A DNA stretch of 64,000 bases from assembly GCA_030265395.1 (NCBI GenBank), contig JARFYF010000001.1:101261427-101325426 (forward strand), in the 5' to 3' direction. A model generated the notes under the pieces. The model was not told the origin of the DNA, made no database searches, and saw nothing but the letters and a program-made list of their open reading frames with translations. Position numbers and translations under genes: made by a program. Position 1 is the first letter of the stretch, and each line of letters starts with the position of its first letter. The stretch is from Rhina ancylostomus. Its lineage: Eukaryota. Below are positions 25,085 to 50,179 of the stretch, in pieces.

Positions 25085-25147
25085 AGCATTTACCAAAATG
25101 GCATCAACTCCTGCTAACTTCGGAGGCAGTGGACCAAAACCAACAAG
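25085..25147 (+). CDS. SCFD1: SCFD1 coding exon, 63 nt
   Basis: catttacag|A GCA TTT...ACA AG|gtacat; AFTKMASTPANFGGSGPKPT(S), compare human AFTKMASAPASYGSTTTKPMG. Confidence 0.95.
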
Positions 25148-25894: not shown

Positions 25895-27334
25895 NNNNNN
25901 NNNNNNNNNNNNNNNNNNNNNNNNNNNNNNNNNNNNNNNNNNNNNNNNNNNNNNNNNNNNNNNNNNNNNNNNNNNNNNNNNNNNNNNNNNNNNNGTGTCA
26001 CCACCCCCCCCCCCCCCCTCTTGGGAGCACTTCATCTACTTCACTGTTTTATATCTTTGGTATAAGGGGATGACTAAAGCTGCAGGTAAGGTGAAGTTTA
26101 AGTATTTGTACTAGATTCAAATTTAATGCTTAGTTTTGCATTCTTACATCTCGATACAAAATTACAACCATACTTTAACACATCAGTTTGTTATTTTACT
26201 GCCCTTACTGCAGTTTTCAATTACTGTATCCATTGAAATCAATGCACAAGTATGAGCATAACATGCAAGTTATAGTTTCAGGAGCCTTTCTTATATCCTT
26301 AAGAATAATTCTTCTGCTTTGAAACCTAGCAGTGGTATTGTAACCATTAAATGAATTTGCCCTCTCCCTATTTTGATTGTTACCGATATATTAGCTGAAT
26401 CATGCTATTGGCTGTAAGGAACAAAGTTTTGAAGCAGGAGTTATAAAATTTTTAAAAGACTGAAAAGCAATGAAAATTCAAAATTAGCAATACATAATAA
26501 AAAGAGCATTTAATTGCCAATTCACAAATGATACCTTTCTTTAAGAAGTCACTTTAGAAGAGGTTATCCACATGCAGCTCCACTTGTTTTAGATAAGTAA
26601 AGAATGAATAAGAAAACCAACTGATGAGACTTGTGCTGATCTCCACAGTATCCTGAGTCAGTGCCACAAGATGTGGTGAGATGGATGATACATCCATTTT
26701 GCAATTGAAAGAAAATAGCAACAGTGTGCATATGTTTAATCTATTGAAAATATGTATGCTCAGAAAAAACTTGCATTTATAAAACTTGCATCTTATACTG
26801 TTACATGGTGAATTATGTTCTGTAGCTACATAGAATTTTGTGCAGTTAGAAATGCAGATAAAAAGATTTTCAGTATTTGAATTGATCGTAACTGAGAAAT
26901 TGGCTTTGCACAAAAACTATCTTTAGCAAATTAAATAATATTAACAAAGTCATATTTTATGGTTTTGTGTTGTAAAGTTATATTATTTTGAAACAGCTTA
27001 ATTGAGTATGTTGTGGCTGCCTTTCAAAATGTGAGCAACAAAAATAACATGTGACTGGAACATTTGTACAACTGCTATCGAGAGTAGCCATAGCTTTATA
27101 ATTGAAAGCAGCTCCTGTGTTATAGCAGATCTTTTGTGTCATGCTTATGACTTGTAAGCAAAACTACTAGAATGTTTCAGAATTTTCTAAACTCACAAAA
27201 ATTGAATCAGAAACATTTGCAAATATGGAAGATCTCAATGTACTCTTTTGTTTTGAGAAGAAAAACAGTAATCTATAAAGGTTTTGCTGGGCAAATTGAA
27301 GACAAACAACTATATGCATGTTTCCTACTTTCAG

Positions 27335-27410
27335 CTTGCTCTCACGTGTAATGAATACTGGATCACAGTTTGTGATGGAGGGAGTTAAGAATTTTGTGCT
27401 GAAGCAGCAA
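27335..27410 (+). CDS. SCFD1: SCFD1 coding exon, 76 nt
   Basis: ctttcag|C TTG CTC...CAG CAA|gtgagt; LLSRVMNTGSQFVMEGVKNFVLKQQ. Confidence 0.97.
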
Positions 27411-30400
27411 GTGAGTATATTTATTTTAGTTAATCCAAGTGCAAAACAGTTTAATGGTAGAATCAAAGTAATATTAGGCCACAAATTGAAGAATCCAGGC
27501 ATGATTTGATTTAAAATCTGCTCAAGTGCCCCTCTTCGCATCCAGCTTTGCAGTGTTGGAGTTTTGCTGCATCTGCAGGTTGTACCAGAAAAAACTGAAT
27601 TTAAATGTAGCCTATCCGTGAAAAAGATTCATTTCAGTTAATAATGCCACAAAGGTGTCTTCATTTGTCTGAGCAGTGCTGCAAGGCACTATCAGAATTC
27701 TGTATTGCATCCTCTGCCTCTTGTGTACAATAGCAGCATTGTTTCCTATCTAAAGGATACTGTATGTAACAGCAACCCATGTCTACTTGCAGAATAATTC
27801 CAAGTCCCAAAACTTCTACAATCAAGGGCAGGAACTTTCCAAGAACATCTGCAAGTTTCCTTCTTAAACCATACTTTCATTATTGCCAAGCCAGTTCCTA
27901 TTTCGTATATTCATTGGAGTGCCATCACTACAAAAAAACTGCATGTTAATTTCTCCTTGCCAATCCAAAGCAACCTGAAGGTGCAGTTATTCAGATTATG
28001 CAATTATTGTTGATTTGACATAAGCATTTGAAATGGATGGAGGAATCAGGAGAGTTTTTTTATTGGATTCACCCTATGTAGGAATGCTAACAGTGCTATT
28101 CCATTTTACAACTGCCTTCAGGTTGTTCAGATACTACTTTGCAGCACTGCTCAGACAAATGAAAGCACTTTTGTGGCATTATTAGCTGAATTTTTTTTCT
28201 TGGATAGGCTGCACTTAAATCCAGTTTTTTCTAATACATCCTGCAGGTGCAACAAAACTCCAGTGCTTCAAAGCTGGATGCAGGTAGGGATGCTTGAATG
28301 GATTTTAAATCTAATCAAGTCTGTATTCATTACATTAGTGTTCCTTGGAGACACAAGAGACTGCAGATGCTGGAATCTGAAGTAAAAATACAAACTGCTG
28401 GAGGAACTCAGCAGGTCAAGCCGCATCTGTGGAGGCAAAGGAAAAGTCAATGTTCGGGTCAAGACCCTGCATCAGGAGTTCCTACAGCAGTTTGTTTTTG
28501 CTACAAGTATTCCTATATTGGTTAGTGAGAGTGCAAATGTAACACTGCAGCAATAATGGAGCATCTGTTTCAGCCAGCAAGCCAGCTGAAAGTTTTCTGT
28601 GGTTTGACCCCAGCACAGTGTAAGTGCTTCTACTTAAGGATCACCAGTTACACACTCCAAAGGACAGGATCACACTTGAATGAACTTGTGCTAGCCACCA
28701 TGCTTTTCTCATGGCTGCTGGGTTCCAATTGAATTCGGGGCCTGGTTACAGCGGCTGGCCTGTGAGACGAAATAGGTTGCAAATGGCAGCAGAGCCTCTG
28801 TGATAGCCTTTTGGACAAATCAGAGACATAGAAATCTATCTGAACTCTCTCTAAATGATATTAAAAGGATGTTTTTTCTAAAAACAATAGATTTGCTTAA
28901 ACTTCTAGAACATAATTAAAGGCAAGGTAAAGAAGCTTTAATAAAGAACTTATTTACACTTACCTTTTCAATCAAATGAATGTGGTTTTACCTTTACACC
29001 AGTAAACCATTGTGTAAAATTGAGGGGCTGGGTGTAAGGTGCATCCAAACCCTCAGCTCAGTATGTTCATGCTCCACTTCTGAACTCAATGCTGAGTTCA
29101 GCTGCAGAGACTGGAAGCATCTCATCTCCAGTTTATCTGTGACTTGCACATTGCAGTGCTCAGTCTTGTTAGAAATCAACTGACCAGCAAAGAGGAAATC
29201 ATCAGCAGTTCCCTATGGAAAAGCCGGCCAGAGGTGAGTGTGTTTTGGCCCAATCTTACCACGTATTGTCCAAGCCCTTGGGGACTGTTACAATTGTCCG
29301 TTGTCAAGCCTCTGAGAAGTGGTTGACTGCATGCCCTGGACTTTGTTAACACTACATTGCTTGGGAACTGAAGGAGTGTTAAGTATGCTGTATTTTCTGA
29401 ACCGTGAGCTTTAATGCCAGCAGAGCTACCATACGTTTGCCATTATTTCTGAATTCTCACAGCATTAGCTCACAGATGCCTCCATTTGAAAATATTATTG
29501 TGTTAGCTTGTTTCCAGCAAGTAAGACTTCCCAAATATTCAGTTATTCCTAGAGGATGACTATCAATTGCCAGCCCACCCAATCATACTTAACACCTATT
29601 GTAATATAAGTTTTCCCTTGGAAAATAAAAACAGAGGAGCTGGAAATACACAGCTGGTGATGGATTGGAAACAATAACTCTGTTTTTTCTCTCCACAGAT
29701 GCTGCTTGTATTTCCAGCATTTTGTGTTTTTATATAAGATTTCCAGCATCCATATGGTTTTGGCTCTCTCTTTGGGGAATTTTGTTTGCAACAGATTGAA
29801 ATTGTGCTTTTTTTAAAAATATTTGAATTGTATCATATTGTCATGGTATTGGTATTTTTGTGAGATGTGAACCTGTTTTATTAGTGAAAGCCAGGATGTA
29901 AATCAGTGTTAGTTGTGTGATATATTTATACATACATGAAATGATTGGACTCCATCTGAAGTAATGCAAGCAATATGGGCTGTCCAGTTATGAAAAAAGT
30001 TATTCTATCTTTTAATGGTTAATGAACAGTTATCAGCTAAGCTATAAGGTCAGAAAGAAAATGATTATTGTTTCAAAAAAAGGCAATTTGAAGGTTCTAA
30101 GGAAAAAATTGCAGTGAATCATTTGTGAGAAGGATCATAAATCTGTAGAATAAATTATGAAGGTAAGCCATTGAATAGGGCAGTATAGATAGGTCAATGA
30201 GAAGATTAAGTTAATTTGTGAAGGTATCATGAGGCTTTAGAATAAAATGACTAGATGAGACTGGCGTGTTTCTCAAATACTCTGGATTGTTCCTTATTTG
30301 TTGCTTTCTAGTGCACTTGATAAACTGCTGTACTGATAATTATCTAGTGTGCCCACTAATGTGTGAGCATTAGCACTTATGTAGCAGAACCTGGTCTCCA

Positions 30401-30489
30401 GATGGACTCCCTTGCCACTGGATCAAAGCCTTGCTGTGTGAAGCTTGTGTGATACAGCAACCTCATGTTAAAAGAAATCACACACATGC

Positions 30490-33382
30490 AATTTCCATTC
30501 TACAGTATGAAGTTCAGGATCTGGAATGTCAGGACTCTTGTGGACAACCTGAGTTGCCACTCTTCTATCATAGTTCAGGAGCTCAGATGCTTTGACATCA
30601 GCGTTATTGCACTGAATGAGATCGGACAGGTGGTAGAAGACAAATCTACAGAACAAGACTGTGTGTACACCTTCTGGAGGGGCAAACTAGAAGGGAAATG
30701 CTGCCCTCATTAATTGACCTTTCCATCATGAATGACCTGGTCCAGCATTTCAGTGACCTGCTCTTCAGAACAACTGAATGCCTGATGACCCACTGGATCA
30801 CTCACAGAATCAACACACTTTGGTCATCTGTGCATATGTGCAACCTTTGAAGCTCTGGACAAAGCTAAGTAGGACTCCTGCTCTGATCTTGAAAATATCC
30901 TGGTCTGCATCATGCCATCTAATCCAGTCTGATATCTCCTTCAAGTTGGCCCCAAAACAACATTACAAATGGAAACATCACAGCAAGAAGATCAACTTCA
31001 ATGCTCTCAAGGACCCCACAAAAGTAGTTCTTCTCAGACAGTTCCACTTGCCTGTCAAATCGCAGCCTACAAAAACCTCAAAATATCTAGAACTTATGGT
31101 CTCCTGTAACTGGCACCTGTAAATAGACTTTTAGCTTCTCTACCGACAAGAATCAAGACTTGTTTGGTAACAATGACCATGAGATTGAGGAGCTAATTAA
31201 CTGCAAATGAGGCATTCCTGGATTGGAAGTTCCACCTTAAGGAAGAAGGGACAGGTTTACAGGCATTTGATGGCAGCGATCTGGCAGAAAACCTGGTACC
31301 CAAAAAGAAAGATGGTAGATGGAGAGAGAGCAGAGGTTACTCAGCAACTTGTCAACAGCCGTCTTACACACGGATTTTGAAGCACTATAAAAACAATCTA
31401 CAGTCCATATTCTCAAGGTCTGACCTCACTGAGAGCCAGGAATAGGGGGTGAATATATCAGAGGCAGAAGAGCAGTCAATACTCACTAGAGGGAATGCTT
31501 CAAAGACCTCCTCAGATGTGACTCTGGCCTTGAAGCGAGTGCCCTTGACCCCATCTTAAAGCAACCTATCTGATTCAGCTTTTGCCCCACCACTGACCAA
31601 CAAACTTGAGAAAGCCATACCCCAACTGAAAAATAGCAAGGCTTTGGGGACAGACAGTATCCCCGTTGAAATCCTCAAACTCAGTGGTCATGAGCTACAG
31701 TCACAAATTCATAGCCTCATCACCCACATCTGGCAAGTGGAAAAAATATTCCATGGGACCTCAGCAATGCTGTAATTGTGAGCATGTTGAAAAGCAGAGA
31801 CGATTTTGACTGTGGTAACTATGGAGAAGTCTCTCAGCTGTCCGCCACAGTGAAAGTCATTGCCATGGTCTTCCTCTACCACATTCTCCAAGTGGCTGAA
31901 GAGTTGTTCCCTGAATCACAGTGTGAATTCCAGAGGCACAGTGAATGTGATTTCACCACGCATCAACTCGAGGAAAAATGCAGGGAGCAGTGCCAGCCAC
32001 TATACGTGGTCTTTTTTGATCTCCATCAATAGGGAACGCACTCCACATGTTCGGCTGCCTATAGAAATTCATCTCAATCTTATACTTGTTCCATGATAGC
32101 ATGTAAGCCATGATGTCAAGCAATGTGTCTTCAGCAGAATCATTCTGTGTGATGATTGCTATCAACAAAGTCTGCATCATTGCCCCAACACTTTTATCAA
32201 TCCTTCTTTCTGCAATATTGTATCTGACCTTGATCAACACAAGCATTTCCCATGGCAGTGGAGGTAACCTTCAGAAGTAATAGGGTGCTGTTCACCAATG
32301 GGAATTTCATCTTACGACCAAGTTCACCCAACCTCAGTGGTCAAGTTGCATATGATGCCTATCTTTGTGCACACTCAGAGGTTGAGCCATTATGGACTCT
32401 TTCACTTGTGCATCTGAGAGGGTGGGCCGAAAACTGGGCATGTGCAAGAAGTTGTTCCTCTGCCAATTTGCCCCCTACGCGTAACACTGCCCCCCAACAG
32501 TAAAGGTTCGTGATAGAATCCTGGAAAATGTGGGACTCCCGCCTTGGGGAAGACTGACACTGATTAACTTCATTTCCAGCTCAAATTCACCAGTGTGGCC
32601 TTTGACTGATTGAAGAAGGTGTCTGAAAAATCAAGACCTCAAACCTGGCACAAACTTATGACCTATCTAGCAGCAGTGATCCCTACCTTCTTATACTCTT
32701 CTGAGACCTGGACCACATTTGGCAAGCATTTCAAGACACTGGAAAATTTCCACCAACACTGTTTCTGCAAAATCTCCAGATTCACTGGAAGGATAGTAAC
32801 CTAATGCCAGTGCCCTCTCCCCAGGCCAGTGTCCCCAGTATTGAGGCCCTGGTCACACTTGGTCAGTTCCATTGGGCAGGGCCATGTCTTTTGCATGCCC
32901 AACACCAGAGCCTTGAAGTGCAAACCTTATTTTGAGCTCTTTCATGAGAAGAGATTACTAAGTAGACAGAACAATGATTGAAGGANNNNNNNNNNNNNNN
33001 NNNNNNNNNNNNNNNNNNNNNNNNNNNNNNNNNNNNNNNNNNNNNNNNNNNNNNNNNNNNNNNNNNNNNNNNNNNNNNNNNNNNNTTATTTTAAAAGCCT
33101 CCTTGAAGAAATGCACCATCTTTGCCGTCAAACCCATGACTTCTCAAGGTGAGGAGTATTCAGTACTGAGAACCTCGACAGTGGGAGCCGCAGAGGCCCT
33201 GTGTAAATACCAGAAGGTGTGGACCACCTCACAAATTACCCACCCACCCAATCCAGGAGCCGGCACCTGCCCCATCTGTAGAAAAGTTTGTGGTTCCCAT
33301 ATTGGATTCATTAGCCGCCTCAGAACCTACACCATCTGAGCAAAAGTAAGACATCCTCAATCCTGATGGCTACCAAAGAAGT
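30490..33382 (+). mobile_element. Long, heavily decayed RTE-clade LINE (APE endonuclease, RT, C-terminal Cys/His motif)
   Basis: FRIWNVRTLVDN..ELRCFDISVIALNE (endonuclease start); DCGNYGEVSQLS..AEELFPESQCEF..LEEKCREQCQPLYVVFFDL (RT); FLYSSETWT..LENFHQHCFCKI; TCPICRKVCGSHIGFISRLRT; many stops and frameshifts. Confidence 0.88.
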
Positions 33383-33974
33383 AGCGCTGTAATTTTAAGC
33401 ATCTGTCCTCCTGTAGTTTGTGTTCATTGTGATTCAAAGTTAGTTCTCTGTAAGATTATGCATGCTTTCTCTTAGCTCATGAAGGGAAATTGTTTCCTTC
33501 TGCAGCATGTTTCAGTAATTCTTATGGATTTCTTCCCAGACATTAATTAATCCACCTTGACATGTAATTTTACAAAGAATTAGTCTCCTAGGAATCATTT
33601 GATGAAAGCTTAGGCATTGGTGATGTATGTCTCAACAAAATGTTTTCAATAATCCAAATGTTATTTAATCATTTTAAATGAGATTATAAGAATCCTAGAA
33701 AATATTTCTCCAAAGGAAGATTTAATTTTTGGAAGAATAAGCAATGGTAGAGATTTTATTTTGGCTGAGTATTTACAATACCAAACAAGTAGCAGGAATC
33801 ATTATAGCCTTGCAATTTATTTTCTAGTGGAGCTTGAATTTTAAAAATGCAATTGGTTGAATTTAAATATCATAATACAAATTATAAACACATTAAAATA
33901 CAAGTTTCTTTTGGTTTTTGTGACTTGTTTAATATCAAAGCTAGATTTTGTTTTAATCCTTAGTATTTGATCTG

Positions 33975-34790
33975 GCATTTATTTCTCCATCAATAATTGG
34001 CTTTGAGAAGCTTTTTTGAACTGCCACAGTCCATGTGATGAAGGTGCTTGTGTGTGATTGTACAGTGCCAATAAATTGGAAATTCTCTAGCTCTGTCCTG
34101 CCATGATGGCAGCATTATATTTTCAATTGCAAAGGTATGTGACTTAGGGGTGATATGTCAGCTGCTTTTGTCCTTGTGCATAGTATAGTTGACAAATTTG
34201 GGAGCTGCCATTGGGTTTGAAGAAGCCTTGGTAATTTGCTGCAATGCATTGTACAGATGAGCAGTGCTCACTGTGTTGTGTTTATTATAAAGGGAGTACA
34301 TATTTCTTTGGTGATTAAATGCACTTCTTGGCCATGGTGATGCTGAATATCCTCAGTGTTATGAAAGTTGCATCCCTGACTTTTGCCTTGTAGTTGGAAG
34401 AAGGGTATGACATGTGGGTGTCGGGGGAAAATGTCGTGGTTGGAAGTAGGGTGCATTGGTGGGTATTGTATCATTAGGAAATAGAGTGTAGTTGCTGGGA
34501 TTAAAGGCCATGGATTGATATTGGTCTATCAGGAAATGAGGTGGGGTTTTTCAGTTAGGTACTTAGAGAAAATAGGTGGATTTTGGGCATCATGAGTTGG
34601 AGCACTGTGGTGTGTTGTTGTGAGTAAAAGACATTGGTGAGTTTTGGACCATTAGGAGATTGAGGAGGTGCATTTGTTGGAAGTGAAGGCCATGGGTGGT
34701 GCTGCTCTATCAGGAGATGAAGTGGGGTATTGCAGTTGTTAGTAGTAGAGGGTATTGGTGGTAATTGTGTCATCAGTAAATGCATGGAAC
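33975..34790 (-). mobile_element. Old LINE remnant (CR1/jockey group, subfamily not assignable)
   Basis: gaagccttggtaatttgctgcaatgcattgtacagatg shared with 49380-49790; endonuclease-like text on minus at 34555-34785. Confidence 0.45.
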
Positions 34791-37789
34791 ATCCTGTGAA
34801 GGGATGTCAGTAGTTAAAATATCTAACTTCGTGCTCTACAAATTGCTAATGAATTCTTCAGGTAGAATTAAAGGGAAGCAATTTAGATTCTCAATTAACT
34901 TAATATGTCTTTATGTCGTGGGGTGTTTGTACAGTAATGATTTGCATGTTTGTAAGATGAATTTAATGGTTATGCCTTTTCCATATCAATGTATACATAT
35001 GATTTTGAATGTAGAAACGAAGCAGTTTCATTTCAAGCACCCCAAGTGAATGGTACTCCCCACAGATAGCTCATTTCCTATGCAAACAGCCTTTTAGCAG
35101 CCCAACTATGAGCAGATCTCCAAGCTACTTTTATATAACACAGATCACAGACTATTTGTGTCTTATTTCTCCATCAAATAATAATTTATATGGAAGTCTC
35201 ATCCAGTTCACTTTAACCCTTTGTTCAAGCTGACTGAATATCATGCAAATCTGCGTAAAGTAGATTGTATATTGCAACTTATCAAAGAGCATATTGGTAT
35301 GATTTAGCCAAATTACCATTAGTTTATTTCTTACAACCTTTCTGGCTTTACCCCTCGAATGAAATGATAAAATTATTTGTAAGCGAAAGCAGATTTCTAC
35401 TAAGATGGCTCATTGATGCAACTAAATACTAATTTTGGGAATGTGAAATGCTGTTCTTGCAACTTTTGTGCTTTAATGCCACCAGAAATTTTGCACTATG
35501 TCTGGATTATGTAAGAATTTCTGCTTTATGAAATCTGAAGCTGATGTACATAATATTTAAATTATCTTTGTTTAGTATAACTGATACTGTATTGCTTGAG
35601 TTAGAATGGAACTCATAAGAAATGTGCAGACATAATTATACATCTGTTGTGTACATTGTGCCATATCTTTCACTGGTATCACACTCAAATGATGATGTGG
35701 ATCATGGTCTGCTGATTCATGAAATACAAAGTAAGCATGCAAGTACATTAGGCAATCAGGAAGACAAATTGAATGCTGGCCTTTATTACATCTTTATTGT
35801 AAAGGATTTGAATGCAAAAGCAAGGTATTCAATTTGTTGTTCATTAATCTTGCTAAGTCATCCTCCATTCAAAGCAACCAGAACCTATAACAATATTACA
35901 ACATAATTCTAAATTTTATATTTGATATCAAAACACAGCCACTTTGAAAGAATGGATTTAATAATTTTCAATGGTTTTGCTAATATTTTGAATTACCAAG
36001 GAAGCTTCATTAATTATATCATACAAGTTCCAAAAAATGTTAGTTTATTCCATGTAATAGTGGAAATTTCCCAAGTTTCCACTGTGGTTAAACCAAGCTT
36101 GCAGTCAGCTTTGATGATTCTGGATTTGATGATCCTATTTCAGTCATTCCATATCAGAAAACTTTGATGCTTTTGCTCTAGTAGGCACCTGTTAGGTAAT
36201 GTGTAATTAAAGCAGATAAGCAGTAACGTTATGGCTTACAAGGAAAATCCAATTAAAGGGATGCTGAAAAGACTTTGAGTGGTTTTTTTATGTCAGAGTA
36301 AAACTAATTTTGAACATTTTCTTTACATAATATTTGCAATTATTACTGCTAGTGAGCTAAAGCTGCTTTTGTTGAGCCAACTTTTGATGTCAATAGTTCC
36401 AACTTGCCAGCCATTTACCAACAGAGCTTTGATATTGTAACTCAGCAGTGGAGTACAAAGTTGTAGTGGACCTCCAGATTTAAGATGGACAATTGCCACA
36501 ACTGCCTGTAAAACATGCACCACTTAAGAACTGGTGCAGGAACAGCATCTTCATTAATTTTAAAGGAGAGGAAAACCTATGAGGGGCAAAGGTAAATATT
36601 AGGCCTTTTTAATTTTTGAGTTTTGATTTAGTGTAAGCATTCTTAAGTGTTCCTTTTTTAAAAATATGAATTAAGTTCTAGTTTTGATTTTTAAGTTACA
36701 TGTTCTTGTATGTTTCCATATGTTAGACATGCAGAAATATTATAGGTTTTTGAAAGGAGGAATGGCCAGCTAATCCAGGAAGTGTAAGCTTTTTTCAGCT
36801 GTTTCATGAATGGGGCCTTTTCCTTCTTTGCTATGTGACAGCAATAATGTGCACAGGACCCTGTTGTTCTGCAAGGCCTGACAGATGAGTATTGGGATGG
36901 CTTCAGTCAGGAAGTTTCCTCAAATGGGTCCACAAAAAGTATGTTTGTATTTAGTCCATGGCAAGCACAGGTTGTTTGCTGCCGACAGGAAATTCTAGAC
37001 CATTAATGTAGTATTACTTAGCCAAATTGAGTTAATAGACTGTTATACAAGTAAATGAAAACAACCAAAAAAATAAAGAAAATGGCATTTTACTCTCTGC
37101 TTGGCTGAACTTGAAAGCATAGAACAAATCTTTTGGTTTCTGCAACTATATTTACATGCTGTTAGTTTAAACCACTAAAGTACATTCTTTTTGTTCCAAA
37201 GCTGCCATTTTATTCATATGTACATTTTTATAATGTATTAATGGTGTTGAATGCCCTTACAAACCACATTTCATTACTTGTAAATTCATTTGATCATTGC
37301 AATATATAAAATATTCCACTGGTAGAATAATAGATTGTCCACATCTGTGTAAATATGATGGTATCTGTATCTGGCTGCTGGAAGCAGTTCACAGGAATGC
37401 CGAACAGAAGTATTTTTAATGTACTCTTCCTTTATTTAATCCTCATCTATCTCTATTTTTTTGACTAACTACCATGTGAACCCAGAGTCCTCTTATACAA
37501 AGAACTGGCTCCTACTCCATTGTTTCTACTTCCAAAAAACAACAGACCACCCAAATGGCTGTCATGATAATTGATGGTGTAAACAATTCATTCTCCTCAG
37601 TTAGTCTCCCTTTCAAATCAACTTCTTCAAACCCTTTCATTCTGTAACATTTCTATTTTTTTCTTCTATCTCATCTCTTGCCCTTGCTGAGTGTTGTATT
37701 CATGAGACCACCTCCTGCTGTCTTGCGTCTGTCCATTATCAATCTGCTGATCATTTAACTTCCCTTCCTGGTCCCCAGTTGTAGGTGGC

Positions 37790-39170
37790 TGAAAATCAAA
37801 AAACAAACTGCATATGTTGAAAACCTGAAGCAGCAGAAAATGTTGGAAGCACTCAGCAGGTCAGGCAGCAAATCTGGATAAGAAACAGAATAAGGTTTCA
37901 GGTCAAGGACCTCTCATCAGAACAAGTTCATATCAAGCTGCAGGGAGGGTGAGGCCAGTATTTCTAAAATTATTCCAATGTTTATAGAGCTGTCTGAATA
38001 ATAAATTGATAAAGGCAGTTGGAGAAAAAGAAAATAAAGGGGCAGGTCAGAGCTGCTGCTGAAATCTGATGCCAAAACGTGAGTATTGGAAATGGCCACC
38101 AGATCAAGCAGTGTTTATGGTGAAAGAAAAACTGAGTTGATATTACAGGTGAATAGCCTTATAGCACAACTGATCGGTACTGATACAGGCAGGAAAAGCA
38201 AGTGATCTGAAATAGCTGAATTTAATATCAAGTCCCAAGGGCTGTAACATACCTAGATGGAAATTAAGGTGCTATTCCTTACATTGGTATTTGATGGAAC
38301 GGTGTACAAAACCACAGGCTGATGGGATGGAGTGGGATGGAGAAGTAACATGACCAGTAACTAGGAAGGCTCTACATTTGGTTCTTCAATATTAGAAGAT
38401 ATTAGATTGTAAGCGCTGAATGCAGCATACTAGTTTGGAAGAACTACAAGTGAATTGCTGCTTCACCTAGGAGAATGGTTTGGGTCCCTCGTTGGTGGAA
38501 AGGGTGTTACATCTGCTGCAGTTATATGGGTAAGTGTTGCGAGGAGTGGAGTGGTTAATGGAGATGAAAGAGCAAACTGGGGGTCACAAATGGAACGGTC
38601 CCTTTTGGAATGCCGAAAGGGAAGGTGGAGAGTGAAAATGTGTCCAGTGGTGGAATCTTTTTGAAGGTGGCAGAAATTGCAAAGGAAGATTTGTTGAATG
38701 CGGAGGTGGAAAGTGAAGGATCGCAGGAGCCCTATCCTTGTTCTGTCGAGGAAGACAGAGGTGAGAACCAAGGTACATGAAATGGATGAGATGCAATCAA
38801 GGACTCTGTCAGCTATAGTAGAGAAAAGCTACATTTAAGGAAAAAGAATGACATCTCGAAGGCACCTGTGCAGAAAGTCTCATCATCAGAAAATGGACAA
38901 ACTGGGAAAATGTCTTTGCAGAAAGCAGGAAGGGAGGAAGCAGGATTGAGATAGCTGTGGGCTTGTAGTGGATATTAAATGTCAATATATCCCCTGTGAT
39001 GGCCACACAGAAATCCAGAAAGGGAAGAGTTGGAGGTAGACCATTTGAAAGTGATAGTAGGGTGGAAATTGGCAGCAAAATTAATGGCATTTTTCTGTTT
39101 TCTGCAAGTGTGGAAAGCAGCACTACAACAATCATCAGTGAACTGGGAAAAGGCGCAAGCTGTCCCCATG
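37790..39170 (-). mobile_element. Penelope-like element: RT and GIY-YIG remnant with two tandem terminal repeats (about 37795-37925 and 38050-38172)
   Basis: Minus strand TLPFLDFCVAITGDILTFNIHYKPT (RT) and LRIQQIFLCNFCHLQKDSTTGHIF...RDRSICD; 38205-38280 encodes the HLxFHLGMLQPLGLDIKFSYFR-type terminus. Confidence 0.8.
37888..37924 (-). ncRNA. Minimal type I hammerhead ribozyme motif (relic) in a PLE terminal repeat
   Basis: Minus: GTT-CTGATGA-G-AGGTC-CTT-GACCT-GAAA-CCTT-ATTC; both core boxes and helix II intact, helices I and III eroded. Confidence 0.6.
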
Positions 39171-39224
39171 TCTCAGAAGAAATTCTCTTTTCAGATCTGC
39201 TATCATTGTCCGGCTTAAGAAAAG

Positions 39225-39780
39225 GCACCCCTCCAGTCAGGCTTCCTGTCTTTCCACAATACTGAAATGGAGCCAATCTGGATCTCAAATTATTTCCTTT
39301 ATATGCCATCTCTTCTCTCCATCTCAATTTTTCTTCAGACTTTGCCACAATTGACACCATATTGCATTCACTACCTTGTTACTATTGTTCATCTGAGCGG
39401 AATTCTCCCTGCCTCACTTTTGCCTATCTATGATAGCTACAGAATCTCCTGCACTGTTTTCACTTCTTTTCCCTGACCATTATCTCTAAGTCCATCAAGG
39501 GTTTATTTTAAGTCCTCTCTTTTATGTCTCATCAATATGCTGCCCCTTGTTGACAAAGGAAGATGACTGCAGAATCCACAGGTACTCAGCCAAGACCCAT
39601 TGTTACTTCATCATTTCCAACCCCACCTTATCAATTTCCTTTGGCTAAACCATACTGTTTGCACCAGGAGCCAAACTTCCATCTCTTTATCCTTTCATTC
39701 ACAAGGAGTCTTATTTCTTCTCTATAATATCACCAGTATATCTTTTCTGTAGGTATCTTGTTTCATGGTATCTTAACTGG
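39225..39780 (+). mobile_element. Decayed L2-like LINE RT fragment
   Basis: ctc cag tca ggc ttc ctg tct ttc cac aat act gaa = LQSGFLSFHNTE, compare QSGFRxxHSTETAL. Confidence 0.5.
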
Positions 39781-40913
39781 GAGCATATGTCAAAAACTAG
39801 AACTGTTCCAATGAAAGGACTTTGACTTGAAATGTTGACTCTGTTTCTCCTTCTGCCTAAACTTACTGTTTCCTGAATTGTCTGTTTTTAATGTTTTTAG
39901 ATTTAATTTGCAACCCATGTTTTGTGTTCTTATAAAACTGCAGTTAGATCTACACTATTATTTGATTTGCTTCATGTTCTTATTCCCAGGGTGATTTTAC
40001 CAGTGTAGTTGTAATAGCTTTCAAATAAATCTCTGATTGGATAGAAGTTGAAATAGGGCAAGGAAATCTTGCGTCACAAAAACAGGCAAATCCACAGCTG
40101 CATCTAAGAGAACTTAAAAGAAAAATGTTGGAAAAATATAAAGTCAAGCCATCAGTCTATTAGCAGTCTGTCAGCAGAAGAAATGAGTTGAAAGAGAACA
40201 GAACATCCCAAATGACTATTTCATATGTAGCCTGTTATATGTGGATTCATATTAAATTTTGTTTTGTATCCTGTAAAGTTGGGGCAACAGTGGAAGTTTA
40301 TATTTCCTTGGGCCAAAGACCCTGGTTGTCTAATTGCAGGAAGAATATTAATGACGTAAGTGAGCATAATGATTATCCAGGCTCTTGGTTAAAAAAAATT
40401 AAATATCTCTTTTGGTAAATATGAAATTTAGAAATGTTGTAACTGGTGTTCTCATGATTATGAAAGAAATTAAATTTATTATCAAATTTGCCTACTTTAG
40501 TGAAGTGTTTAAATGCAAAACTAATGCTAAATTAAAGATTAGGACAGCGTAAGAGAAGTCGGGTATAATTTTTCATGGTATAAGCTGGAATTCCCTGGAA
40601 TCTAATGTAATGAGAGCATAAAAGCAACATAGCACAAGAATGTTTTACCCTGAAACTTATTCTTGTAAATTTATGCACTGTTTCTGAAATGCCTCCACCA
40701 AAAGCAACTGCTTTTTTTTATTTATACCACGTAAAGTGGGAGTTCATGATATATTTATGTGATTAACACATTGAAGTAGATTTATAGCTATAATAATGAT
40801 AGAGGGAAAAAAGGGAAAGAGACTATGGCACCAGGGAAGAATATAGCAGCACCATTGGTTAATATCCCTATTGATGGCTCTGCATTTACATTTGTTTCAG
40901 CCCTACTGTGTAG

Positions 40914-41097
40914 ATAATATAAGATCTTTATTAGTCACATGTACATTGAAACACACAGTGAAATGCATCTTTTGTGTAGAGTATTCTGGGGGCAGCCCAC
41001 AAGTTTTGCCACACTTCTGACGCCAACATAGCATGCCCACAACTTCCTAACCCGTATGTCTTTGGAATGTGGGAGGAAACTGGAGCACCCAGAGGAA
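40914..41097 (-). mobile_element. V-SINE with Rex1/Babar-type tail; 5' part in a gap
   Basis: cccgtatgtctttggaatgtgggaggaaactggagcacccagaggaa core; tail tttattagtcacatgtacattgaaacacacagtgaaa. Confidence 0.78.
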
Positions 41098-41763
41098 NNN
41101 NNNNNNNNNNNNNNNNNNNNNNNNNNNNNNNNNNNNNNNNNNNNNNNNNNNNNNNNNNNNNNNNNNNNNNNNNNNNNNNNNNNNNNNNNNNNNNNNNNNN
41201 NNNNNNNNNNNNNNNNNNNNNNNNNNNNNNNNNNNNNNNNNNNNNNNNNNNNNNNNNNNNNNNNNNNNNNNNNNNNNNNNNNNNNNNNNNNNNNNNNNNN
41301 NNNNNNNNNNNNNNNNNNNNNNNNNNNNNNNNNNNNNNNNNNNNNNNNNNNNNNNNNNNNNNNNNNNNNNNNNNNNNNNNNNNNNNNNNNNNNNNNNNNN
41401 NNNNNNNNNNNNNNNNNNNNNNNNNNNNNNNNNNNNNNNNNNNNNNNNNNNNNNNNNNNNNNNNNNNNNNNNNNNNNNNNNNNNNNNNNNNNNNNNNNNN
41501 NNNNNNNNNNNNNNNNNNNNNNNNNNNNNNNNNNNNNNNNNNNNNNNNNNNNNNNNNNNNNNNNNNNNNNNNNNNNNNNNNNNNNNNNNNNNNNNNNNNN
41601 NNNNNNNNNNNNNNNNNNNNNNNNNNNNNNNNNNNNNNNNNNNNNNNNNNNNNNNNNNNNNNNNNNNNNNNNNNNNNNNNNNNNNNNNNNNNNNNNNNNN
41701 NNNNNNNNNNNNNNNNNNNNNNNNNNNNNNNNNNNNNNNNNNNNNNNNNNNNNNNNNNNNNNN

Positions 41764-42325
41764 TCCCCTGGCAGTGGATTCCAGGCACCTATCACTCTGT
41801 ACTTTTGGAAAAAAAGGACCTTAAATCTATGTCCTCTGGTATTTGACATTTCAACCCTGGGAAAAAGATTCTCTCTACCCCATCTATGCCTCTCATAATT
41901 TTATATACGTCTATCAGGTTGCTCCTCAGCCTCAGACGCTCCAGAGAAAACAATCCAAGTTTGTACAATCTTTCCTTTTAGCTAATAGATCCAGGCAACA
42001 TCCTGGTGAACTAATTCTGCATCCTCTCCAAAGCCTCCACATCCAACCCACAGTGTGGGGCCAGAACTCCTCACAAGACTCCAAATGTGGCCTAACCAAA
42101 GTGTTATAGAGCTGTCACATGACTTCCTGACTTCTATATTCATTGCCCCGATCGAAAGGAAAGCGTGCCATGCACCTGCTTTACAACCCCTGCTTTTAGA
42201 GAGCTATGGACTTGCATCTCAACATCCCTCTGTGTATCAGTGCTCCTAATGGCCCTGCATTTACTATATACTGTCCCCTTGCATTTCACTTCCCAAATGC
42301 ATCACCTCACACTTCTTAGGATTAC
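41764..42325 (-). mobile_element. CR1 LINE fragment
   Basis: SNTRGHRFKV..RVIGAWNPLPG on minus; tccaaatgtggcctaaccaaagt (LVRPHLE region). Confidence 0.85.
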
Positions 42326-45300
42326 ACTTTATCTGGTATATGAACATTGAATTTTGCAAAATTCAGGTAATCCTCACCCCCAGTGTCCTCCATCACCCAC
42401 ACTCACCCCTTCACCTAGTTTTCTTCTCCCTTTGTTCATTTCTCCCATTCTCCTCCCCCACCTTGCTTTATCTGCCCGTCACCCCCTCCCCATCTGGTTC
42501 CACCTTTCACCTACCAGTCTCTATCGCACCCCCCACTCCCACCGTCCTGTTATAAACTAGCAATCTTTCCTCTCCCATGTCAGTCCTGATGCCTGGTCTC
42601 AACCTGAATCAACTTGCACCTTTTGCTAGTTAACCCCCTGAGTTCTTCCTTTCATTCTGTTTTTTGTTCTAGATTTGGGCGTCTGCAATCTCTTTAGTCT
42701 TCAAATTCCATCTTCCATTTCTCCACCCAAATTTCCAATTGATCTATNNNNNNNNNNNNNNNNNNNNNNNNNNNNNNNNNNNNNNNNNNNNNNNNNNNNN
42801 NNNNNNNNNNNNNNNNNNNNNNNNNNNNNNNNNNNNNNNNNNNNNNNTCTGGTTATCATATAGTCTTAGGGAAGTCAGTTTACTTATGACTTTGTGACTG
42901 ATGCACTATCTAAACCTATATCACTTTGAACCCATATTAGCTTGCAAAAATCTTTTATTTTTGGGTTTGACAAATTACAATTTGACCTGACACCCATGGC
43001 TATTTACCAAAGAAGATTCCAAATTTCTTCCTCCTTTCTGTGCAGTAGAAAAGTTTAAGTCTAATTGTGGGCCCTTGGCTTAGCTGCTTCGACTAGTGGG
43101 AATAATTTCTCTCTATCTAGCCTATCAATTTCCCCTCAAAATCTTTGATCAAATCACCCTTAACCTTCAAGTTCAAGGACTGCTCCCCTGTTTAAGTAAT
43201 CATGTCATAACTTAACCTTTGGGATTCAAATATCATCCTGCTAAATCCACCCTCCACTTATTCCACAACCTGCAAATGGTGCCAGAGCTTTTCTGAATAC
43301 GCTATGTGTTGTTCAAGCAAGGCTTTGTATGCTGTAACTTCCATTCTTTTGTATTTTAGTTATCCAAGGTTACCCATTTTGATTATTTGTTTTAACTTCC
43401 CTTTGTTACCAGTGTAATGTAATGCTTTCACCTGCATTGTTTACAATGCCATATATCCAAGTTTGTCCATGATGCAGAGAATTATGGCCACATTGTAAAC
43501 CTTTAATAAAGTTATTGCATTGGATAATTTAATAAGGTGATCATCATATTGCAGTAATCCATGAGGAGACTTTTAATGTATCTCCATAGGATGCGTAACT
43601 TTTTCTCAGTCAAGAAGTAGAAGAATTTACAAAGATACCATGATCTTTAGGTATTGATGGAGCAGTTGGGGAAAGTCATAAGCAAAGATAAGAATGGCAC
43701 TTTGTAATGAATTATTGGGAGACAACTATAATGTTAAAATGTTCAAATAAAAGTTGTTACTTGAACAAAATATGACCAACTTGGTTGCTTACTTCGAAAT
43801 ACTTGAGAAGGCACTGGGATTTAACTGAGAAAAAGCTTCCTGGTAAAAGTATTGGTTTGACCGATTATCAGGCTGAGTGTTATAAATGGGTATTTTCTAA
43901 ATTTAGGGTTGCTTCTGGCATCAAACTGCATTCAAGAAATTGTGCCACTGTTAACTCCCTTGGGCTAATTACAAGTGGTCAATCCACTTCTTAATGTCTC
44001 AATTTCATTTGGGATGGCAAGCACAGGAAGAGAAGCAAGAAGATAGATGGCTAGGAGTCTCAGGTCAAACCAGTATTTATACACCATTTTCCCTTTCACG
44101 CTTGTTTGAGTTGGTTGCTTTAAGTGGTGGTGCTGGAGAAAAATTGTATCTCAACAAATCTTAAACCAAGCCTAAACTCATGTAGAAACCCTAACTAATG
44201 CAATTCCATGAAAATGTTTCTATGCAGCGTCTCTGACTGCTGAGTTTCATGATTGCAACTGACTGACTTTACAACGTTGCTTAAAGCCAGCAGGTAGGAT
44301 AGTCCATTAGTGGACTGGGGAGAAAAAAGCCTAAACTGACTTCAAACAAGGGTAGAAATTAATTTCTGTACATCAGCAATTTGTAGCATCGTACATCAGG
44401 AATATAGTTATTATTATTGTACAATATTTTAAGGAAGACTGAATTGGAAGTAAAATTACAGAAATGCCCAAGAGTAATTACAAGTTAATTTGGTTGTTCA
44501 TGTGTTCCTTAACTTCCTTGAAAGATTGCATTTGGAATTTTGGAAACTCAGGAAAAGGTCTAGGCCACTACTCTGAATACCTCCTCTTAGAGGAAGTTGA
44601 GTGGGTGGCTACTTGGCTAACTACAGTACATGGCTGTGTACAAGAATGCAGCTCCAAGCAATCAGTGTAAGATGTATTCTTTGGTTTGGGGTAGGGAAAA
44701 TCAGATGCTGTCCTTGGCATGAATAAAATTATTCTAAACCCCTCCCCATAATTAAGACGTTTACAAAAATCACCAGTTATTTTTCGCATTAAATTGGTAT
44801 AAAGTGTAAGTTGAATGCTGTTTGGTAGAGCAAATATGGAGATGAAAACTGAATACATTAATTTCAGAAGAAATTTATCTATTAATTAGTGAATTCACCC
44901 AAGAATAATATAGGATGACTCAAGTATTGAATGAATTGCTGAAAAGGGAATGGAATCATATGATTTCAATTAAAAGCACCTGTTTATGAAAAGAAATAAT
45001 ATGATATAAATTTGTGAGTAATATCACATTTTGAATGCAGACATTGTCTCACTAGGCTTAAAATATGCAGTCTTCTGCCAGTGCTGCTAAGACTGGAAAA
45101 TTTCAGTGTAGTAACTACTGCCAGTATAAAACCAAAGAGGCGTTAAACACTGATATCTTTGTAGTTTACTACAGCACCTCTTTATGATAAAGTTATATAA
45201 GGGAATCCATGTGAGCATTGCATACAGCAGCTTTCCTTTTTATGCCTNNNNNNNNNNNNNNNNNNNNNNNNNNNNNNNNNNNNNNNNNNNNNNNNNNNNN

Positions 45301-47329
45301 NNNNNNNNNNNNNNNNNNNNNNNNNNNNNNNNNNNNNNNNNNNNNNNNNNNNNNNNNNNNNNNNNNNNNNNNNNNNNNTTGATGAATCAAATGCAGATAA
45401 TGGATTTTTAGATTGTTTCATGAAAATGGACAACTTTCACATTTAAAAATGAAAAGAAATACTGTTAACATTTGGCAACTATGGCTCATGACCAGAGATA
45501 AAAAGATTAATTTTGTAGTTGTGTATGCTATTTGAACTGTTGTAGGAGTTCCTCATATGCATCCATAACACACGACATGGAGCAGTTTGCTTTTATTGGT
45601 ACTTAACACCATCATATTGGCTTGCATGTAGGATCTTTTTTTGTGGCATTCTAAAGGGCCTTTTAGTACTTTTGCATCTGTTTGAATTGAAGCTATGTTA
45701 AACTGAGCAATGTAGCTGATGTTTATTTTGTTTTCTTGTGGCGTGAGGAAGAAGATTTGAAGTTGGAAATGTATATGATTTTTTTCCCCCAGAAGTAACT
45801 GGCTAATGCTGTGAAATCTATTGATGGAAACTGAAAATAATTATTAATTAATGTGAATTTAATTGAGTATTCTTGATTATTTATGTTGATAAGAAATATT
45901 CGAGGAAAACATTGGAACCTAGAAACTGGAATAAGCATTTGAATGCTTGGGTCTGTTCCCTCATTTGTTGATCCATGATTAATCCTTATTCCTTGATATC
46001 CTTATCAATACATCTCATATCCCAGATATATTACATCAACCTCAAGGAACTATCATGCCTGTGTTTGTAATTAAGCTTGCAAACCCTGTTATTGTTCAGT
46101 TGATCGTTCTGTGCACTATTCCTCCACCAAGGTCAGTTTATCTTTGAGTTTGATGCCCAAGACTCAATGCAGTGTTTGCGAAAAAATTTTTAGAACATCC
46201 ACTTTGAGTCTGAATGAGGCAAGAGGGCATAATTTTTTTTCTGAGCCCAAGTGACATTCTCTTACCCCTTAATACCTTTATGAAGTTTCTGTGTGCAAAT
46301 ATCAACTATCAAGAAAGATTCTTTAAAAAGTGTGGAGCTGCAGTCTAGTAAGAATCTTAAGGGATAGATAAATTTAGATATAGATTATTAAACAATATGT
46401 AACATAAATCTGAAATATTGCATTGGCTAGTAGTTCAAGAGGGCATGAATTGTAATTATAGAGAATCAAATTAAAAACAATCTGGGAGGAAATAAATTTG
46501 TTAGAAAGTGTATATTTGACACAGAATTGAAGACCAAAGGAGAGTTCAAGATGTATTTGAAAATTCCTTATCTACCTGCTTAAAATGTTTTGTTCAAATT
46601 AATTGACTTTTTTGGAGGAAGGAAGAAATTTTCTTCATAATAAGCACTTTATGTTGGATGGAATGCTGGACACTAGATATTCTGGAAAGATTTGAAATGA
46701 ATTAAAAAATAGGATGAAATAGTGACAAGCTTTGAGGGTTTTTCATTCTCGAAAAAATATTTAATTATTAAAGTGGCATTTTACTTTTCTTTAAAAACTA
46801 CTTCTTTCAACCTCCAGCCAATTATTTAACTCATGAGACAAATGTTTTCAGTAAGAGGCAAAATGCCTTTATCTTTACAACTGATGCAGGGTTCCTTATA
46901 GTATTTCACCAATCATTGTCAGCAAGCACACAAAGCAGGCTAATTTGACTTCTAGAGGCCCATGTGATTTGAATATATGAACCTGACATTGGCACATACT
47001 GTTGCTAAACATCTCCTGATCACTCATACTGCTACCATCTTTACACTTTGTGCGGGCTGGGGATGGAGGTAGAGTTCAGTGGAGATGGCAAGGTTAGTGG
47101 GGTTTAGGATGAATTGTTGATGGTTTAGTAGGTGGTGGGATCGTAGCACTGTTGATTTGTTTGGTATGGAAAGAATGGGTTAAGTAAAATGTTCAGCTGA
47201 GTTGCACTTTCAGAAATCTGACTGCTATTGATAATAGTTTGTGCTGTTTTTCTTCTGTCTTCACTTGCAGTCCAGTCAATGGTAAACTGCAAAATAATAA
47301 CACAAGTAATATGCATGGAGAAAATTAAA

Positions 47330-47575
47330 TGGCTGACGCTGTTGGAAATCTGAAATCAAAAGAGAAAATGCTGCAGGTACTCAACAAGTCAGGCAGCATC
47401 TGTGGAGAGAGTAAAAGAGTTAATGTTTGAGGCTATTGATCTTTCGTCAGAGTTGGACAAGTGAGAAAACCAAAACACTTCTCTCCCTGTTTCATCGACC
47501 TGAAACATGAACTCTGTTTCTCTTTCCACAGATGCTGCCTGATTTGTTGAGTGTTTCCAGCATTTTCTGTTTCTT
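47330..47575. repeat. Penelope-derived inverted terminal-repeat pair (about 70-bp arms)
   Basis: agaaaatgctgcaggtactcaacaagtcaggcagcatctgtggagagag is the reverse complement of ctctttccacagatgctgcctgatttgttgagtgtttccagcattttct with few mismatches. Confidence 0.85.
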
Positions 47576-48094
47576 TTAATATTAAAAAATCTTATAGTGA
47601 ATTAATGATTATTCATAGACCAATGATTGGAAATGGCTATGAGGAAATAGGCTCAATCATGTGTTAATTCTGTACTATATACCCTGTGGAAAGAACTGAA
47701 GTAGCTGCATCTGAGTGTTATCTAAAGATTCTCACCACATTTCATTCCTTTTAGACCAGCTAATCACCTCTCGTGTTGCACAATGGAGTCAGGACCATGT
47801 AAAATCTGAAGTGGCATGGTTAGAGGGAGGCAAGAGTGTGCTGAAATAATTCAGTAATTGTCTAAAGCTGTACATTCTATTCATTATTTATCTTCATTTG
47901 TTTTGATGTTATTTATATTTCTGCAGTTTAGGAAGCAGAGTAGGAATGGTCCGTTGCATAGGAGTTTACAGTATTGGTTTGAGGAGCCTGGAGATGCAGA
48001 ACTAAATTGCTAAAGACCTAATGAACTTTATAAATATTTCACTGTCATTCTTCATAGCTAATAACTGACAAAATTCTGCTTATCTCCTTTTCAG

Positions 48095-48148
48095 AATCTG
48101 CCAGTGACTCGTATCTTGGATAACTTAATAGAGATGAAATCAAATCCT
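48095..48148 (+). CDS. SCFD1: SCFD1 coding exon, 54 nt, after a 20.7-kb intron
   Basis: ccttttcag|AAT CTG...AAT CCT|gtgagt; NLPVTRILDNLIEMKSNP. Confidence 0.96.
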
Positions 48149-48934
48149 GTGAGTAAAGATTAAGTATTAGCCTTGATGAGAAATACAAGATAAAATTACG
48201 TGACTATATGTACTTCAACAAAAATCATCAGCATTTAACTTTTCAAGTTTGTTCCATTACTTCCCTGATTACCTAATCTGTAAACTTCATGTTCTCATTT
48301 TTGTTCTTTTGACAACTTTCAGCTAAAAATTATAAAATTATGTGAAGTAACTTTCATAATATTCCATTCAAAAAGCATGTGTTTATTATTGCGAGTGTTG
48401 TGTTGAAGTATTTGGATGAAAATCATATTAACGTTAATCCACAAATGAATAATAGAGACCTTGTTTTATTTTTCCCTTTCTAATGCACAGTTTACTTACT
48501 TATCACAACACAGAAGGATGATGTTCACAAAATGCCAGTTCCACAATTACTTTTGAATTAATAGGTCCAGGTATCTTCTGTCAGATCTAACTTGCTGCAG
48601 GATTTGAGAACAATTTCCCAAGTATAAGCGCTGGTGAATCACAGCAAAATCCAGCTTCATTTCTGGACTTGGAAGGGTCCAGGGAAGCAAGAAAACCAGG
48701 AATTGGCCTGTGGAGCTAGTCCAGTAACTTAGGGCCTTCTGAGTTTGCACAGAAATCCTAAAACTCATTGGCACTTAGACTGAGAAATGCTGACAATTTG
48801 GTGTGGAACTACCACCAAAAGTTGCATTAGTGTCTGTCATTTGGTTATAGTTCAGCCTGGCTGAGTGAGAGATTAGGGCAGAACTTGGGTGAATGCTCAT
48901 CAGTAGGCTGGCAAGAATATTGAATGAAAATGAA

Positions 48935-49345
48935 CAAAAACTGCTGATGTTGGAAATCTGAAACAAAAATAGAAAATGCTGGAAACTCTCAGTAGATCAG
49001 GGTGCATGTATGGAAATACAAACACAGTTAAAATTTCAGGTTGAAGACTATTCATTAGAACAGGAAAAGAGAGAAAATAAGTTGGTTTCAAGTGGCAGAG
49101 GCTGGGGGAGTCACAGATAGGACAAAGGAAATATCCCTGATAGTGTCAACCGAGGATTGCTGTTACAATAAGCTATTGATGAAGATCCTCACCAGACATA
49201 TTCCCTTGTCCTATCCATCCACCCTCCACCATCTCTGCACTTAACTTGTCTTCTCACTTTCCCAGTTCTGATGGTCGTTAGCTTGAAACATTAACTGTTT
49301 CTCTTTCCACAGGTGTTGACTGATACTTTCCAGTGTTTTCTGCAG
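48935..49345. repeat. Penelope-derived inverted terminal-repeat pair with a hammerhead relic on each arm
   Basis: Left arm on minus CTAATGA..GAAA (49025-49062); right arm on plus CAGTT-CTGATGG..GAAA-CATT-AACTG (49263-49297). Confidence 0.7.
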
Positions 49346-49379
49346 AATATTGAATGTACCTTGTATAATTTATTGATGA

Positions 49380-49790
49380 AGCTTGATACATTGACGAGGC
49401 TTTGTTAAATCCTCCTTGCCCTTGGGGAAGGTGATTGTGAGCCGACATCTTAACCCTCTTCATTCTTTGTGGATTGCACAGTATTCCCACAATAGTCAGG
49501 TAGTGAATTTGAGGATTTTGATTCAGTTATGATAAAGGATTGATGGGGCTTTACAGTCAGTGTAACCTGGAGGGTGATGGAGGTCATTGGTTTGGAACTG
49601 CTGTCGAGAACGCATGGAGAGTTGTTGAAGTGCATTTTTTTAAACAAGGCACTTTGCAGCCATGGAACTACGTGGAGGGAATAAATGTTTAAGGTGGTAA
49701 ATGAGTGCCAGTCACACAATACTGCTTCATCCTGGGTGGTGTTGAGCTAAAGTTCTAATCACTGAAACAAATGGAGAGTATTCTCTACTT
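49380..49790 (-). mobile_element. Old LINE ORF2 C-terminal remnant (same family as 63790-64000)
   Basis: Minus strand TTLNIYSLH...KKMHFNNSP; tgactggcactcatttaccaccttaaacatttattccctccac matches 63835-63879. Confidence 0.55.
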
Positions 49791-50179
49791 GTAACTAAAT
49801 AGCTGCTCATAATAAGACTCTATCTGTGTATAGAACTGGGAAAGAATAGAACGTGTTGTTTACGATTTGTGATAAAAATTTTGCTCTGAAATGCTATCCA
49901 AATTTTATCAATCATATGCTTTCTTGCATTACCAAAAAGATAATTACAGGCTCGAAGAGCAGGTTCTCAGTCAAATGACGCTCCTTTGTCTGTGATTATG
50001 GAAAAGAGAGTCAAATAAACATTTACAGGGGAAATTAGTGATAAATGGTTTACTCTATGAGCCAGCATTGTCTAGATGGGCCAAAATGGCCACCTCCTAC
50101 ATTGTAAGGAAACATGAAATATGCTTTTAATTTGCTGAGGAAATTACCTCTGATTCTTAATATGGAAATATATTCTAAT

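Follow-up and report, generated by a model that had tools for sequence, protein, structure and literature searches.

The window, that is, the whole stretch of 64,000 nt of Rhina ancylostomus DNA, carries a host gene of the Sec1 family and a family of short dispersed repeats, which the initial annotation described as relics of minimal hammerhead ribozymes (min-HHRs) in terminal repeats (pLTRs) of Penelope-like elements (PLEs) scattered throughout the introns of SCFD1.

6074..63270, plus strand: host gene, SCFD1/Sly1-type, Sec1 family, 11 exons found

The exons lie near positions 6074, 7127, 12801, 17545, 17991, 24088, 27335, 48095, 52910, 55621, and 63205. Two out of five exons tested match the Pfam Sec1 domain (E 3e-4), and one exon weakly matches Sly1 (1mqs, E 0.08). 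Judging by its motifs, the gene is probably SCFD1, a housekeeping gene. The intronic location holds for most copies of the repeat, since they are spanned by the Sec1-family gene with its 11 exons, but not for the copies upstream of 6074, which precede the first exon found.

The hammerhead family is indeed the commonest short repeat in the window, with 15 linked loci as compared to five for the next family. The latter occupies 8334-8640, 21144-21454, 41815-42126, 56824-57170, and 50952-50999, and its translation presumably resembles the 3′ end of a CR1/L2-type LINE. Other repeats include a degraded LINE-like remnant at 30450-33400 (plus strand), which weakly matches RVT_1 at 31715-32029 (E 0.0026), and related pieces at 53868-54422; a dispersed 600-bp repeat pair, 10322-10915 and 58154-58747, 77% identical; and two local inverted pairs, 27491-27697/28126-28328 (80%) and 23187-23278/23647-23738 (97%), which may be transposon ends.

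All 14 stretches listed in the initial annotation are found at the coordinates and on the strands given there, and we name the copies by these starting positions. The features of the family are as follows.

462..640, both strands: head-to-head insert, subfamily B; tail on minus arm, none on plus arm (copy 522)
2690..2860, plus: second PLE ORF remnant, C-terminus (start approximate), tblastn E 0.038
2877..3007, plus: inner core-dead hammerhead copy and flank of the second ORF remnant, absent from the initial list
3168..3293, plus: outer hammerhead relic (copy 3175) with flank and tail, 294 nt after the inner copy
4622..4667, plus: tail-only fragment (profile match)
12010..12260, plus: 5′-truncated pLTR with hammerhead relic (copy 12131)
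20704..20911, minus: 5′-truncated pLTR; hammerhead relic (copy 20795) without the 3′ strand of helix I
22153..22638, plus: subfamily-B pLTR (copy 22160), split at helix III by an insert of ~350 bp and resuming at 22543
25262..25411, both: head-to-head insert with half a hammerhead only; tail on minus arm
28351..28507, both: head-to-head insert, subfamily B; minus arm with hammerhead relic (copy 28446) and tail, plus arm short and tailless
29619..29750, both: head-to-head insert starting at G12; tail on plus arm
37797..37886, minus: pLTR 3′ flank plus tail, following the hammerhead of copy 37888 (profile matches)
37887..37925, minus: outer min-HHR relic (copy 37888), C3 at 37920, position 17 at 37892
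38050..38172, minus: inner core-dead hammerhead copy and flank, ~40 nt past the end of the ORF, with the outer copy 247 nt downstream, absent from the initial list
38204..39157, minus: PLE ORF remnant, 5′-truncated and frameshifted, with RT motif C region, thumb, Zn-finger linker, and GIY-YIG endonuclease
39797..39929, plus: pLTR piece with hammerhead relic (copy 39805)
42576..42698, plus: subfamily-B pLTR piece with hammerhead relic (copy 42581)
47323..47583, both: head-to-head insert; minus arm (copy 47418) tailed, plus arm tailless, with a deletion of the first catalytic box
48931..49343, both: head-to-head insert; copy 49025 (minus, tail) and copy 49263 (plus, no tail)
62625..62996, minus: direct pair of hammerhead relics (copies 62954 and 62680), 273 nt apart

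The 14 copies align over ~140 nt, comprising the 40-nt hammerhead-like part and ~100 nt of 3′ flank. The profile derived from these copies yields 22 matches in the window at E<1e-3, with the best match in the reversed window at E=3. When each copy in turn was left out of the profile, 11 out of 14 were regained at E<=1e-9 and two weakly (22160 at E 0.034 and 42581 at E 0.019), whereas for copy 522 the match returned was the neighboring inverted arm. A profile of the flank only, with the hammerhead part removed, retrieves the same loci, and thus the family is not an artefact of selecting hammerhead-like text. Apart from the 16 copies used for its training, a covariance model detects nothing in the window below E 0.1; its best match outside the training set, 43409-43446 (plus strand, E 0.11), is possibly a very old copy or a chance match. 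The density is about 16 hammerhead relics per 61 kb of called sequence, and, as the window contains 3017 N in 12 gaps, copies in or near gaps may be missed. The 14 copies do not represent 14 insertions (see below). By our own grouping, there are two subfamilies; subfamily B, comprising copies 522, 22160, 28446, and 42581, has loop II shorter by one base.

Copy 37888 had been claimed to cap a PLE remnant with RT and GIY-YIG domains, and this is the case: the remnant lies upstream of it at 38204-39157. A phmmer search with the remnant against 1.84 billion proteins produced three matches (best E 1e-6), assigned by their sources to a stingray and the whale shark, and tblastn of the relatives back to the window recovers the remnant with E 6e-20. 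A profile of 50 relatives covers it over positions 499-854 out of 856, in three frames. The relatives are ORFs of 730-960 aa with RT (PF00078) and, in part, GIY-YIG (PF01541); the motif CX2-5CxxC precedes GIY-YIG in 48 out of 52 full-length relatives and in six out of 10 chondrichthyan ones, and in the window remnant itself this linker is eroded. The frames of the remnant have no Pfam match, and a word-indexed homolog search with it gave 496 candidates, none of them at E<=0.001. The element was an endonuclease-bearing PLE, and its linker, judging by the relatives, was probably of the Neptune/Nematis type. A 7-bp repeat flanking the ORF unit is within chance. The second remnant region aligns with the unit at 37780-38364 with 59.6% identity over 621 columns (E 2.5e-22), and at both ORF ends found (two out of two) a pLTR with a hammerhead lies downstream of the ORF.

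The anatomy of the other copies provides evidence of PLE origin that is independent of the ribozyme, namely, inverted inserts and a one-sided tail. In all six head-to-head inserts, the tail of about 25 nt is present on one arm only, the tailed arms scoring 30-38 and the other arms 13-20, with the background 99th percentile at 25. Among these six inserts, target duplication is clear in one, likely in one, and not convincing in four. The clear case is the exact 13-bp duplication at 48914 and 49344 around 48931-49343, a result obtained in two out of 3000 draws of random window pairs; it follows that copies 49025 and 49263 are one insertion. The likely case is the insert 25262..25411, flanked by a 12-bp duplication with one mismatch (25246/25411). 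An 11-bp repeat with one mismatch, at 62614 and 63049, brackets copies 62680 and 62954; it is a possible target duplication, which would make this pair one insertion.

Except for the interrupted copy 22160, no family match starts or ends at the cut site, suggesting that the template RNA was uncut or re-joined there. This is in line with the uncut RNA template described for the PAc element of Anolis (PMC11167929). The sequence interrupting copy 22160 (22191-22542, plus strand) lies exactly in helix III and is solo-LTR-like, with TG...CA ends, short TIRs, and a 4-bp duplication; a second copy of this ~350-bp sequence starts from about 25693, and both copies contain an assembly gap.

The consensus flank contains, ~25 nt past the cut site (e.g., 47400-47420, minus strand), a pyrimidine tract ending in CAG and followed by ATG. 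The frame led by this ATG is stop-free to the element end in subfamily A, and it is stop-free in subfamily B as well. By analogy with other pLTRs, the tract and the ATG may be a candidate splice acceptor and ORF start, respectively. Compared with the collected proteins of the PLE relatives, this frame yields no meaningful match (best E 1.6).

To assess the hammerhead layout, we wrote a strict descriptor from the min-HHR layout described in 2014 (PMC4209133). The family consensus has the CUGANGA, GAAA, and U16.1 core, at least 3 bp in helix I and at least 4 bp in helix II. The majority consensus satisfies the descriptor except for the 15.2-16.2 pair, and restoring this one CpG produces the full fit. 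Random sequence with the same composition as the window (266 Mb) contains seven matches to the descriptor without the 15.2-16.2 pair and two in full, so that the fit of the consensus to the min-HHR layout, as had been proposed, is far beyond chance. Among 20 rows, the 15.2/16.2 states are CA in 10, CG in three, TG in three, and other in four; two out of the three rows with CG come from the same copy, leaving two independent copies with CG. The presence of CA or TG in place of CG in 13 out of 20 rows, together with the CpG observed-to-expected ratio of 0.18 in the window, is the pattern of methyl-CpG decay. Thus, the loop-less palindromic ACGU helix III of the initial annotation is obtained if CpG decay is assumed, CG being the inferred ancestral state, but the majority state is CA.

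Hammerhead identity holds for the consensus and not for any single copy. The strict descriptor has no matches among the window copies, a relaxed one has two matches in the window vs. 0-2 in each of 12 shuffles, and an exact two-box pattern has two matches, a number reached by seven out of 100 shuffles. The Rfam hammerhead models have no matches at the gathering score in the window; the six weak Rfam matches at 37700-38300 do not include a hammerhead model. None of the 16 two-half copies combines an intact core with all helices, in agreement with the earlier statement that every copy is lesioned. Copy 37888 had been named as having the best-preserved core, and it is the only one of the 16 to keep all 11 invariant bases; it retains five out of five pairs in helix II, has lost the helix III pair (C.C), and retains two out of five pairs in helix I, and in its predicted folding the first box is drawn into another helix. 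Copy 62954 keeps all three helices and has two core changes. As all copies carry lesions, the doubts about their activity were justified: the copies in the window are inert, all of them being relics.

The initial annotation also held that the pairing in helix II survives sequence change. As covariation, this does not exceed shuffles: 69.1% of cells are paired among the copies vs. 67.9% in shuffled data, with 132 out of 500 shuffles as high, and the covariation score is equalled by 54 out of 500 shuffles. RNAalifold on the copies predicts zero consensus pairs, and folding z-scores of six copies, ranging from -0.98 to +0.79, carry no information. At the same time, controls with a slid register have 15-43% of cells paired vs. 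69% in register, and thus the pairing is real at the level of the consensus. The closing pair of helix I is swapped between the subfamilies (U-A/C-G), with the basis of one or two copies only, because the partner base in 22160 belongs to the insert, and 522 sits at a junction. The helices have decayed without compensation among the copies. When two strands of the consensus are folded together, an extended duplex (-24.5 kcal/mol) is preferred over the double hammerhead (-9.7 to -12.1 kcal/mol), which leaves the dimer without thermodynamic support, although two-strand equilibrium models favor duplexes of any hairpin, making this result weak either way.

Taking all this into account, we consider it very probable that the repeats are dead-on-arrival pLTR 3′ ends of at least two subfamilies of endonuclease-bearing (EN+) PLEs with a loop-less min-HHR, decayed after insertion. 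The core of the earlier proposal, min-HHR relics in PLE terminal repeats, is borne out by the linkage to the ORF at both ORF ends, by the inverted and tailed anatomy, and by the consensus fold. The active element would have carried the loop-less min-HHR in its pLTR. By comparison with other PLEs, cleavage of PLE transcripts by this ribozyme was most likely weak and dimer-dependent, with tandem pLTRs pairing via the palindromic helix III and perhaps with assistance from the protein of the element. New copies would have been made by endonuclease-primed reverse transcription of RNA uncut at the ribozyme site; reverse transcription may have started at one of two points ~25 nt apart, resulting in copies with or without a tail, and early truncation and inversion would have produced short solo and head-to-head pieces. 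The inserted copies would then have accumulated CpG losses, core changes, and indels with no compensation.

The two ORF-bearing loci have a further feature in common: downstream of each ORF end there are two units of hammerhead plus flank, with a spacing of 247 nt in one locus and 294 nt in the other; a third direct pair (62954/62680), spaced by 273 nt, lacks an ORF. The inner copies of both ORF remnants have G8>A and A9>U in common and a pyrimidine at A13, and out of 66 pairs tested, these two copies share the largest number of derived states, four in the hammerhead and 10 overall. These shared changes and the common layout indicate that the doubling and the dead inner core probably predate insertion. 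The plainer reading is that of an old pLTR duplication that decayed in the master element. A quite unlikely possibility, which builds on two loci, is a progenitor whose 3′ region had an asymmetric double hammerhead built in: the inner copy, located after the ORF stop, would have lost G8, A9, and A13 while keeping the cleavage triplet and the helix I strand, and the intact outer copy 250-290 nt downstream would have cut it in cis. If so, one element would supply its own dimer partner and cleave at one site only. More generally, a family in which the ORF is followed by two hammerheads would be a natural cis-dimer substrate.

The direct pairs are also relevant to the suggestion of the initial annotation that the family includes retrozyme-like non-autonomous derivatives. 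According to this explanation, the short copies form a separate retrozyme-like or SINE-like family spreading via circular RNA produced by double cleavage. Indeed, most copies have no nearby ORF, and the spacing of the three direct pairs (247-294 nt) falls within the range of retrozyme units, the retrozymes reported in one chondrichthyan averaging 363 bp (bioRxiv 10.64898/2026.07.22.740005). However, two out of these three pairs sit on ORF ends; TRF finds no array in the window, only three unrelated 14-27-bp repeats; there are no runs of more than two copies, and no two neighboring hammerheads are both complete. Nor are there units bounded by the cut site: the 5′ ends are variable, copies span the cut site, and the short copies, with their PLE tail asymmetry, are 5′-truncated or head-to-head pLTR pieces. 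The suggestion of retrozyme-like derivatives is therefore not upheld, and a separate family of this kind seems quite improbable.

Still less probable, and in our opinion very much so, is that some copies, e.g., 37888, are under selection as ribozymes used by the host or as intronic signals in SCFD1. Two observations could be taken in its favor. In subfamily A, the core is better kept than the flank (13/108 vs. 109/518 changes, p=0.03; p=0.10 when the two inner copies are added), which is not predicted by pure neutral decay. Among the 14 listed copies, core lesions are more numerous in those oriented sense to the host gene than in the antisense ones (18/77 vs. 8/77, rank test p=0.007). However, the flanks of the sense copies are also more diverged (98/350, 28%, vs. 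79/381, 21%, p about 0.02), and core-specific erosion on the sense strand was rejected, as the excess over the flank has p=0.24. Further, no copy passes the strict descriptor, one intact core in 14 copies is expected by chance (0.16 per copy), and 37888 itself is antisense to SCFD1, with helices I and III broken and the core folding into another helix. We read the core retention as selection on several active progenitors, combined with ascertainment, and not as selection on the inserts. The copy density is sufficient for a genome-wide test of whether introns are purged of ribozyme-bearing inserts on the sense strand.

Finally, the 3′ end of a LINE or SINE could resemble a hammerhead by chance, given that single copies are not above chance, there is no Rfam match, and the copies were hand-picked; this least probable explanation is largely refuted by the retrieval of the same loci with the flank-only profile, by seven descriptor matches in as much as 266 Mb of random sequence, and by the linked ORF being that of a PLE.

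The preferred reading, decayed pLTR ends of EN+ PLEs, can be compared with several known systems. The literature search, which was conducted outside Repbase, Dfam, and subscription journals, found no paper on this particular hammerhead. Penelope is listed in the whale shark (PMC8455134). Retrozymes have been reported in one chondrichthyan, and the window family may already be present in the supplements of that report (bioRxiv 10.64898/2026.07.22.740005). As in the non-LTR retrozymes described in PMC7229834 and bioRxiv 10.64898/2026.07.22.740005, the hammerhead is of type I and originates from a PLE pLTR, and the distance within the direct pairs is comparable to the unit size; unlike them, the window family has no tandem arrays or two consecutive complete hammerheads, and it lacks the canonical helix III and the contacts between loops 1 and 2.

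The closest relatives share with the EN+ PLEs of the Neptune/Nematis clade (PMC8557442) the C-terminal GIY-YIG and the CX2-5CxxC linker, and the window family shares with the elements described there the 5′ truncation, the head-to-head inversion, and the one-sided tail, which is about 25 nt long as compared to the published 30-40 bp. The tail on one of the inverted pLTRs is a published PLE trait (PMC3846280, PMC8557442).

PAc (Poseidon_Ac) of Anolis, as described in PMC11167929, is similar in having a hammerhead in the pLTR, a tail, copies spanning the cut site, and an ATG-led open frame in the pLTR consensus. However, PAc is a member of the Penelope/Poseidon clade with an ORF start at stem II, while the ATG in the window family is ~25 nt past the cut site. 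In PAc, uncut RNA serves as the template, cleavage is dispensable for insertion in vitro, the ribozyme needs the protein of the element, and the tail lies between two start sites of reverse transcription (PMC11167929). The role of PLE hammerheads is regarded as unsettled in PMC8557442 and PMC11167929.

The min-HHRs themselves were described in 2014 in thousands of dispersed, truncated PLE copies, and were reported to cleave weakly and only as dimers (PMC4209133). The window family has the same short helix I, CUGANGA followed by one unpaired base, helix II of 5 bp, GAAA, and NUH, as well as, if the CpG is restored, the loop-less palindromic helix III; GUU triplets and U at 11.1 are also present in the alignment of that paper, and its elements likewise occur as thousands of dispersed, variable, and truncated copies per genome. 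Two features set the window family apart from the min-HHRs presented there, namely, the helix II loop of only 2-3 nt and the second, core-dead hammerhead at the two ORF ends. Table S1 and Figure S3 of PMC4209133 contain no chondrichthyan, and the relics described here extend PLE min-HHRs, at high density, to a lineage, probably cartilaginous fishes, that is missing from the 2014 survey.
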